From the NCBI RefSeq assembly GCF_003334405.1, contig NZ_QOWM01000028.1: a stretch of 30,887 nucleotides of DNA. The stretch is one strand, 5' to 3'. Within the stretch, counting starts at the first letter, position 1, and the number at the start of each line of letters is the position of its first letter. Below, piece after piece: positions 22,647 through 25,600 of the stretch. The notes below the pieces were generated by a model. It searched no databases. It was not told where the DNA came from and saw only the letters and a list, made by a program, of their open reading frames with translations. The DNA is from Escherichia coli (GTDB lineage: Bacteria > Pseudomonadota > Gammaproteobacteria > Enterobacterales > Enterobacteriaceae). A program made the translations under genes and the position numbers.

Positions 22647-25600
22647 TTACTCGTCTTCCAGTTCGATGTTGATACCCAGCGAACGAATCTCTTTCAACAA
22701 TACGTTGAAGGATTCTGGCATGCCCGGCTCCATCTGATGGTTGCCGTCCACGATGTTTTTATACATCTTGGTACGACCGTTCACGTCATCAGACTTAACG
22801 GTGAGCATTTCCTGCAGGGTGTATGCTGCGCCGTATGCTTCCAGCGCCCACACTTCCATCTCCCCGAAACGCTGACCACCGAACTGTGCCTTACCACCCA
22901 GCGGCTGCTGAGTAACCAGGCTGTAAGAACCGGTGGAACGCGCGTGCATCTTGTCGTCGACCAGGTGGTTCAGTTTCAGCATGTACATGTAACCAACGGT
23001 TACCGGACGCTCGAACTGTTCACCAGTGCGACCATCGTACAGGCGGATCTGACCGGAAGTCGGCAGGTCGCCAAGTTTCAGCAGCTCTTTAATTTCTGCT
23101 TCTTTCGCACCGTCGAACACCGGCGTTGCGATTGGCATACCTTTGCGCAGGTTTTCAGCCAGACGCATAACTTCTTCATCGCTGAAGGTACTCAGGTCAA
23201 CTTTCTGACGAACGTCAGCGCCCAGATCGTACGCACGCTGGATGAATTCGCGCAGTTTCGCGACTTCTTGCTGCTGTTTCAGCATGGCGTTGATCTTGTC
23301 GCCGATACCTTTCGCAGCCATACCCAGGTGGGTTTCGAGGATCTGACCGATGTTCATACGAGACGGTACGCCCAGCGGGTTCAGTACGATGTCTACCGGC
23401 GTACCGTTTTCATCGTAAGGCATATCTTCGATCGGGTTGATCTTAGAAATTACACCCTTGTTACCGTGACGACCTGCCATCTTGTCACCAGGCTGGATAC
23501 GGCGTTTAACCGCCAGATATACCTTAACAATCTTCAGCACGCCCGGTGCCAGATCGTCGCCCTGGGTGATTTTGCGGCGTTTCGCTTCGAGTTTCTTCTC
23601 GAACTCGTGTTTCAGTTCGTCATACTGCTCAGCCAGCTGTTCCAGCTGATTTTGTTTCTCTTCGTCTGTCAGGCCCAGCTCCAGCCAGCGATCGCGCGGC
23701 AGTTTGTCGAGCTTCTCAGCTTCAACGCCACCGGCTACCAGCACAGCACGGATACGGCTGAACAGACCCGCTTCGAGGATCTGCAGTTCTTCAGACAGGT
23801 CTTTCTTCGCCTGTTTGAGCTGCATTTCTTCGATTTCCAGCGCACGTTTGTCTTTTTCTACGCCATCGCGAGTAAAGACCTGAACGTCGATAACCGTACC
23901 GGATACACCGTTTGGTACGCGCAGAGAAGAGTCTTTAACGTCAGAGGCTTTCTCACCGAAGATCGCACGCAGCAGTTTTTCTTCTGGGGTCAGCTGAGTT
24001 TCACCTTTCGGCGTTACCTTACCAACCAGAATGTCGCCACCGGTCACTTCCGCACCAATGTAAACGATACCGGATTCATCCAGTTTGGAGAGCGCAGCTT
24101 CACCCACGTTCGGGATGTCAGCGGTGATCTCTTCCGGACCCAGCTTGGTGTCACGGGACACACACGCCAGTTCCTGAATGTGGATGGTGGTGAAACGGTC
24201 TTCCTGAACAACACGCTCGGATACGAGGATGGAGTCTTCGAAGTTGTAACCATTCCACGGCATGAACGCTACGCGCATGTTCTGACCAAGCGCCAGTTCA
24301 CCGAGGTCGGTGGACGGACCGTCTGCCAGCACGTCGCCACGTTCAACCGGTTCACCCAGAGACACACACGGCATCTGGTTGATACAGGTGTTCTGGTTAG
24401 AACGGGTGTATTTGGTCAGGTTGTAGATGTCGATACCTGCTTCACCCGGATACATCTCGTCTTCGTTAACTTTGATAACGATACGGGAAGCATCCACGTA
24501 CTGAACGACACCACCACGTTTAGCTACCGCAGTTACACCGGAGTCAACGGCAACAGCACGTTCCATACCAGTACCAACCAGCGGCTTATCAGCGCGCAGA
24601 GTCGGAACGGCCTGACGTTGCATGTTCGCACCCATCAATGCACGGTTGGCGTCATCGTGTTCCAGGAACGGGATCAGGGACGCACCGACGGATACCACCT
24701 GCTGGGTGGATACGTCCATGTAGTCAACCTGGTCGCGGCTGAACAAGCTGGATTCGCCTTTGCTACGGCAAGTTACCAGGTCTTCTACGAAGTGGCCTTC
24801 TTCATCCAAGTTGGAGTTCGCCTGGGCGATAACGTAGTTGCCTTCTTCGATAGCAGACAGGTAGTGAATTTCGTCAGTTACAACACCGTCGGTCACTTTA
24901 CGATACGGAGTCTCAAGGAAGCCGTATTCGTTAGTCTGTGCGTACACGGACAGAGAGTTGATCAGACCGATGTTCGGACCTTCAGGGGTTTCGATTGGAC
25001 ATACGCGACCGTAGTGAGTCGGGTGTACGTCTCGAACTTCGAAGCCTGCACGTTCACGGGTCAGACCGCCTGGGCCGAGTGCGGAGATACGACGTTTGTG
25101 CGTAATCTCAGACAGCGGGTTGTTCTGGTCCATAAACTGAGACAGCTGGCTGGAACCGAAGAACTCTTTCACTGCTGCGGAAATCGGCTTGGCGTTGATC
25201 ATATCCTGTGGCATCAGGGTATCCAGATCGCCCAGAGACAGACGCTCTTTCACCGCACGCTCTACACGTACCAGGCCAACGCGGAACTGGTTTTCCGCCA
25301 TTTCGCCAACGGAACGGATACGACGGTTGCCGAGGTGGTCGATATCATCGACTTCGCCTTTACCGTTACGGATATCGATGAGCTTTTTCATAACATCAAT
25401 GATGTCGTCTTTGCTCAGGATACCGGAACCTTCGATTTCTTCGCGCAGCAGAGAACGGTTGAACTTCATACGACCAACCGCAGACAAGTCATAACGGTCT
25501 TCGGAGAAGAACAGGTTCTCGAACAGGCTTTCAGCTGCTTCACGAGTCGGCGGCTCGCCAGGGCGCATCATGCGGTAGATTTCTACCAGTGCGCTCAGAC

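Follow-up and report, generated by a model that had tools for sequence, protein, structure and literature searches.

The rifampicin-resistance clusters of rpoB are wild type in a 31-kb segment of an Escherichia coli chromosome

The RRDR of E. coli rpoB consists of cluster I (amino acids 507–533), cluster II (563–572) and cluster III (residue 687), and more than 80 resistance SNVs are known (PMC11084559). Both the 81-bp cluster I and the E. coli numbering convention have been described (PMC3975073). Rif-resistance alleles of E. coli include V146F, Q513L/R, H526Y and S531F, and the role of V146F, at an N-terminal site, has been described as well (PMC10427823). The closest well-characterized system is rpoB of the wild-type strain K-12 MG1655, the rifampicin-sensitive parent from which rare Rif-resistant mutants were selected on plates with 50 mg/L rifampicin (PMC11084559).

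We compared a 30,887-nucleotide stretch of E. coli DNA, termed the window, with positions 4176000..4210000 of the annotated MG1655 chromosome (NC_000913.3). The whole window is the reverse complement of NC_000913.3 4177033..4207919; the two are equal in length and differ by six substitutions and no indels. It spans purH to secE, and its gene content is exactly that of K-12, without insertions. The RNA polymerase genes lie in their native rplKAJL-rpoBC context, collinear with MG1655, with rplL upstream of rpoB and rpoC immediately downstream. rpoB is encoded on the minus strand, a point that the initial annotation had left unstated. Compared with MG1655 rpoB (b3987, NP_418414.1; RefSeq non-redundant protein WP_000263098.1), it shows no difference, being identical at 4029 of 4029 nucleotides and 1342 of 1342 amino acids. 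The identical rpoB in the PGAP-annotated MG1655 record NZ_CP032667.1 also corresponds to WP_000263098.1. The rpoC gene matches its MG1655 counterpart at every nucleotide, and none of the six substitutions falls in either gene; the differing positions are all in thiH, thiE, thiC, hemE and purD. The coordinates of these features are collected in the table.

Residue numbering in rpoB must follow the annotated start at 26675, where the protein begins MVYSYTEKK. Two ORFs are the largest on the minus strand of the window: 22647..26708, of 1353 aa, and 18347..22570, of 1407 aa. The first of these, the mechanically defined rpoB ORF, begins 33 nt upstream of the annotated start, and an in-frame ATG thereby gives it an 11-codon extension (26676..26708). 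Long ORFs are also present antisense to rpoB (22737..25625, plus strand, 962 aa) and rpoC (18473..20884, plus strand, 803 aa). In MG1655 nothing is annotated over these two antisense ORFs, which are most likely by-products of rpoB and rpoC codon usage and not genes.

Counted from the annotated start, the minus-strand translation of 25077..25157 gives 27 in-frame codons, RpoB G507 to L533. These coordinates are the precise bounds of the classical 81-bp Rif cluster I, as the initial annotation had proposed. The peptide quoted there for cluster I (FGSSQ...GPGGL) runs slightly beyond them: it corresponds to F506..L538, for which we calculate 25062..25160. The second peptide, quoted for the downstream cluster II, is T539..L571 (calculated 24963..25061); it adjoins the first and contains cluster II except for I572, which is also unchanged. 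Relative to MG1655, cluster I (507–533) is free of substitutions and in-frame indels, and we found no substitution in cluster II (563–572), in cluster III (687) or at the N-terminal site (V146 and its neighbours 143–148). In direct comparison, R143, V146, Q148, all of 507–534, 563–574 and R687 are as in MG1655. The classical resistant alleles V146F, Q513L/R, H526Y and S531F affect this same gene and these codons, and the rpoB of the window carries none of them.

Table. Positions of rpoB, rpoC, the Rif sites and the six substitutions in the window, with their state relative to E. coli K-12 MG1655.
Feature	Coordinates	Strand	State or basis
Complete rpoB CDS, 4029 nt, 1342 aa	22647..26675	-	nucleotide-identical to MG1655 b3987
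Complete rpoC CDS (beta'), 4224 nt	18347..22570	-	nucleotide-identical to MG1655 b3988
rpoB codons 507-533 (Rif cluster I, 81-bp RRDR)	25077..25157	-	wild-type; translation and MG1655 comparison
rpoB codons 563-572 (T563..I572, Rif cluster II)	24960..24989	-	wild-type; MG1655 comparison
rpoB codon R687, CGT (Rif cluster III)	24615..24617	-	wild-type; MG1655 comparison
rpoB codon V146, GTT (N-terminal Rif site)	26238..26240	-	wild-type; MG1655 comparison
rpoB residues 143-148, RVIVSQ		-	as in MG1655
rpoB codon D516, GAC	25128..25130	-	as in MG1655
rpoB codon H526, CAC	25098..25100	-	as in MG1655
rpoB codon S531, TCC	25083..25085	-	as in MG1655
thiH L18L	16105		MG1655 comparison
thiE I25L	13788		MG1655 comparison
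thiC A520A	13380		MG1655 comparison
hemE G328G	9221		MG1655 comparison
purD E249K	2733		MG1655 comparison
purD D179N	2523		MG1655 comparison

The initial annotation had described cluster I as wild type, with D516, H526 and S531 unchanged, cluster II as unchanged and the gene as free of classical rifampicin-resistance substitutions. All of this holds against the MG1655 reference. The alignment to K-12 RpoB that it had proposed, at residues 146, 507–533, 563–572 and 687, returns reference residues throughout, and the direct comparison is a stronger result than the one claimed. Because rpoB and rpoC are both nucleotide-identical to MG1655, every residue of beta and beta' is wild type, including V146, clusters I and II and R687, and rpoC is without compensatory or inhibitor-resistance changes. 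Other beta and beta' alleles are covered by the same identity, among them the sites of resistance to streptolydigin, microcin J25 and CBR, and stringent-like and adaptive alleles.

We are therefore left with little doubt about the overall reading: the segment almost certainly comes from a K-12-like E. coli chromosome, its 81 nucleotides are the wild-type cluster I of rpoB, and the encoded enzyme, whose rifampicin pocket is unaltered given the identity of the two genes, should bind the drug. Rifampicin occupies the beta pocket formed by the Rif clusters and is a steric block to the nascent RNA, so that extension halts after 2–3 nucleotides. With an unaltered pocket, the enzyme is expected to be as rifampicin-sensitive as that of MG1655. 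The identity of the genes is a direct observation; that the enzyme should be sensitive is inferred from the phenotype known for MG1655. This segment encodes the standard rifampicin-sensitive allele of the RNA polymerase target. The result was already known, a correct negative at an entirely ordinary locus, and its importance is very little. Its practical use is confined to annotation and quality control, as a statement that target-based rifampicin resistance and adaptive or compensatory mutations of RNA polymerase are absent from the locus.

In some Rif-resistant isolates the part of rpoB that was sequenced carries no mutation (PMC11084559), which bears on whether a non-classical resistance or compensatory substitution could lie outside the inspected clusters, elsewhere in beta or in beta'. 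Nothing positive points to such a change; the question arises only because the initial annotation had inspected clusters I and II by eye. It is refuted by the identity of the rpoB and rpoC coding sequences to those of MG1655, which leaves no substitution, even a synonymous one, in either gene, and we give this explanation practically no chance. Substitutions outside the classical clusters and compensatory changes in rpoC were accordingly rejected. A consensus sequence could also mislead in another way, by masking either resistant cells in a mixed population or an additional, diverged copy of rpoB. Minority (heteroresistant) alleles are invisible in a consensus, and a few genomes in the collection described below have more than one rpoB match (up to three places per genome, with two places on plasmids). 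The window, however, contains one rpoB, which is intact and lies in its native operon, with no sequence sign of collapse or chimera, and an assembly artefact of this kind appears highly improbable, if slightly less so than an overlooked substitution.

The remaining alternative leaves the target wild type and places resistance elsewhere. Non-target rifampicin resistance can arise, for example, from arr-type ADP-ribosyltransferases on plasmids or integrons, from efflux changes or from permeability changes. A determinant outside the window could make the strain resistant, whether arr, a different rifamycin-modifying enzyme or a change in efflux or permeability; the window covers only 31 kb of the roughly 4.6-Mb chromosome. 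No such gene lies within the window, which has no indels relative to MG1655 and the K-12 gene content. We consider resistance of this kind very unlikely, though it is the least improbable of the three alternatives. It would not conflict with the wild-type reading of the locus, which concerns rpoB only: a wild-type target speaks for rpoB and rpoC, and its scope does not extend to resistance determinants outside the 31-kb window.

rpoB was compared by megablast with 5426 complete E. coli genomes, 5421 of which gave a match. Many records, including those of MG1655, C600 and J53, match the whole gene at 100%. The exact 81-nt cluster I sequence is present in 4301 of the 5421 genomes, and the other 1120 differ from it at one or more nucleotides. 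We sampled four of the genomes with a non-identical RRDR: RM14723, Esc15, EPEC E2348/69 and strain 19213. In three of them the changes are synonymous only, and the protein is WP_000263098.1, as in the window: RM14723 and Esc15 each have S531 TCC>TCG, and EPEC E2348/69 has TCG at S531, GCC at A532 and CTT at L533. The fourth, strain 19213 (NZ_CP135077.1; human, Hungary), carries a true H526Y (codon 526 CAC>TAC) in a protein, WP_109955121.1, unlike that of the window. This allele is readily told from that of the window, and strain 19213 thus serves as a positive control, showing that the comparison discriminates and can detect a resistant allele. The K-12-type codons are the majority nucleotide haplotype, and the wild-type state is the default, expected one and not an enrichment. 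With the 81-nt haplotype in the majority and three of the four sampled variants synonymous, the idea that the wild-type state is noteworthy among E. coli was rejected.

Two rpoB matches in this collection are on plasmid-labelled records, some genomes have two or three rpoB places (maximum three), and five of the 5426 genomes have no match at all. These plasmid-labelled, multiple or absent matches may be oddities of assembly or labelling.

All six differences between the window and MG1655 lie in its left 16.1 kb; the half that contains rpoBC and the ribosomal-protein genes has none. Window positions 1..17500 have no exact match among the complete E. coli genomes. As read from the bit scores, the 15 best matches to this interval have five mismatches (32289 bits) and the K-12 records have six (32284 bits). 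When NZ_AP022105.1, the top match, was compared directly, five mismatches were again counted, and the allele at 13380 was the only one shared. For the other five SNPs, we counted exact matches to 61-mers centred on each. None was found for the alleles at 2523 (among 4139 matched E. coli genomes), 2733 (1542), 13788 (5085) and 16105 (4431), and the allele at 9221 has a single exact match, in strain N96, among 5411 matched genomes. Apart from the one at 13380, the alleles that differ from K-12 are essentially private, and they include purD D179N, purD E249K and thiE I25L.

Four of the five private alleles are G>A on the plus strand of the window; transitions account for five of all six differences, and three of the changes are missense. 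A search of the six SNPs for a mutational signature pointed to no particular mutagen: no SNP falls in a Dcm site (CCWGG), and the four G>A changes have no common flanking context. Five rare substitutions in a K-12-like background might mark a mutagenised or mutator-derived lineage and not a natural isolate, a reading that we hold only tentatively and think rather unlikely. Other possible sources of the pattern are private changes in a natural relative and errors in the sequence. Whichever origin applies, it has no bearing on rpoB.

Two of the private missense changes (2523 and 2733) fall within 211 nt of each other in purD (1989..3278, plus strand). Among solved homologues of PurD, the Neisseria enzyme has N at position 179, a natural occurrence of the residue introduced by D179N, and the enzymes of two thermophiles have S or T there. 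Residue 249, a semi-conserved position, is E, D or N in the solved homologues, and K is a charge reversal. Residue 25 of ThiE aligns with V of the B. subtilis enzyme, and the change from I to L is conservative. Taken together, these alignments suggest that the PurD and ThiE missense changes would have mild effects.
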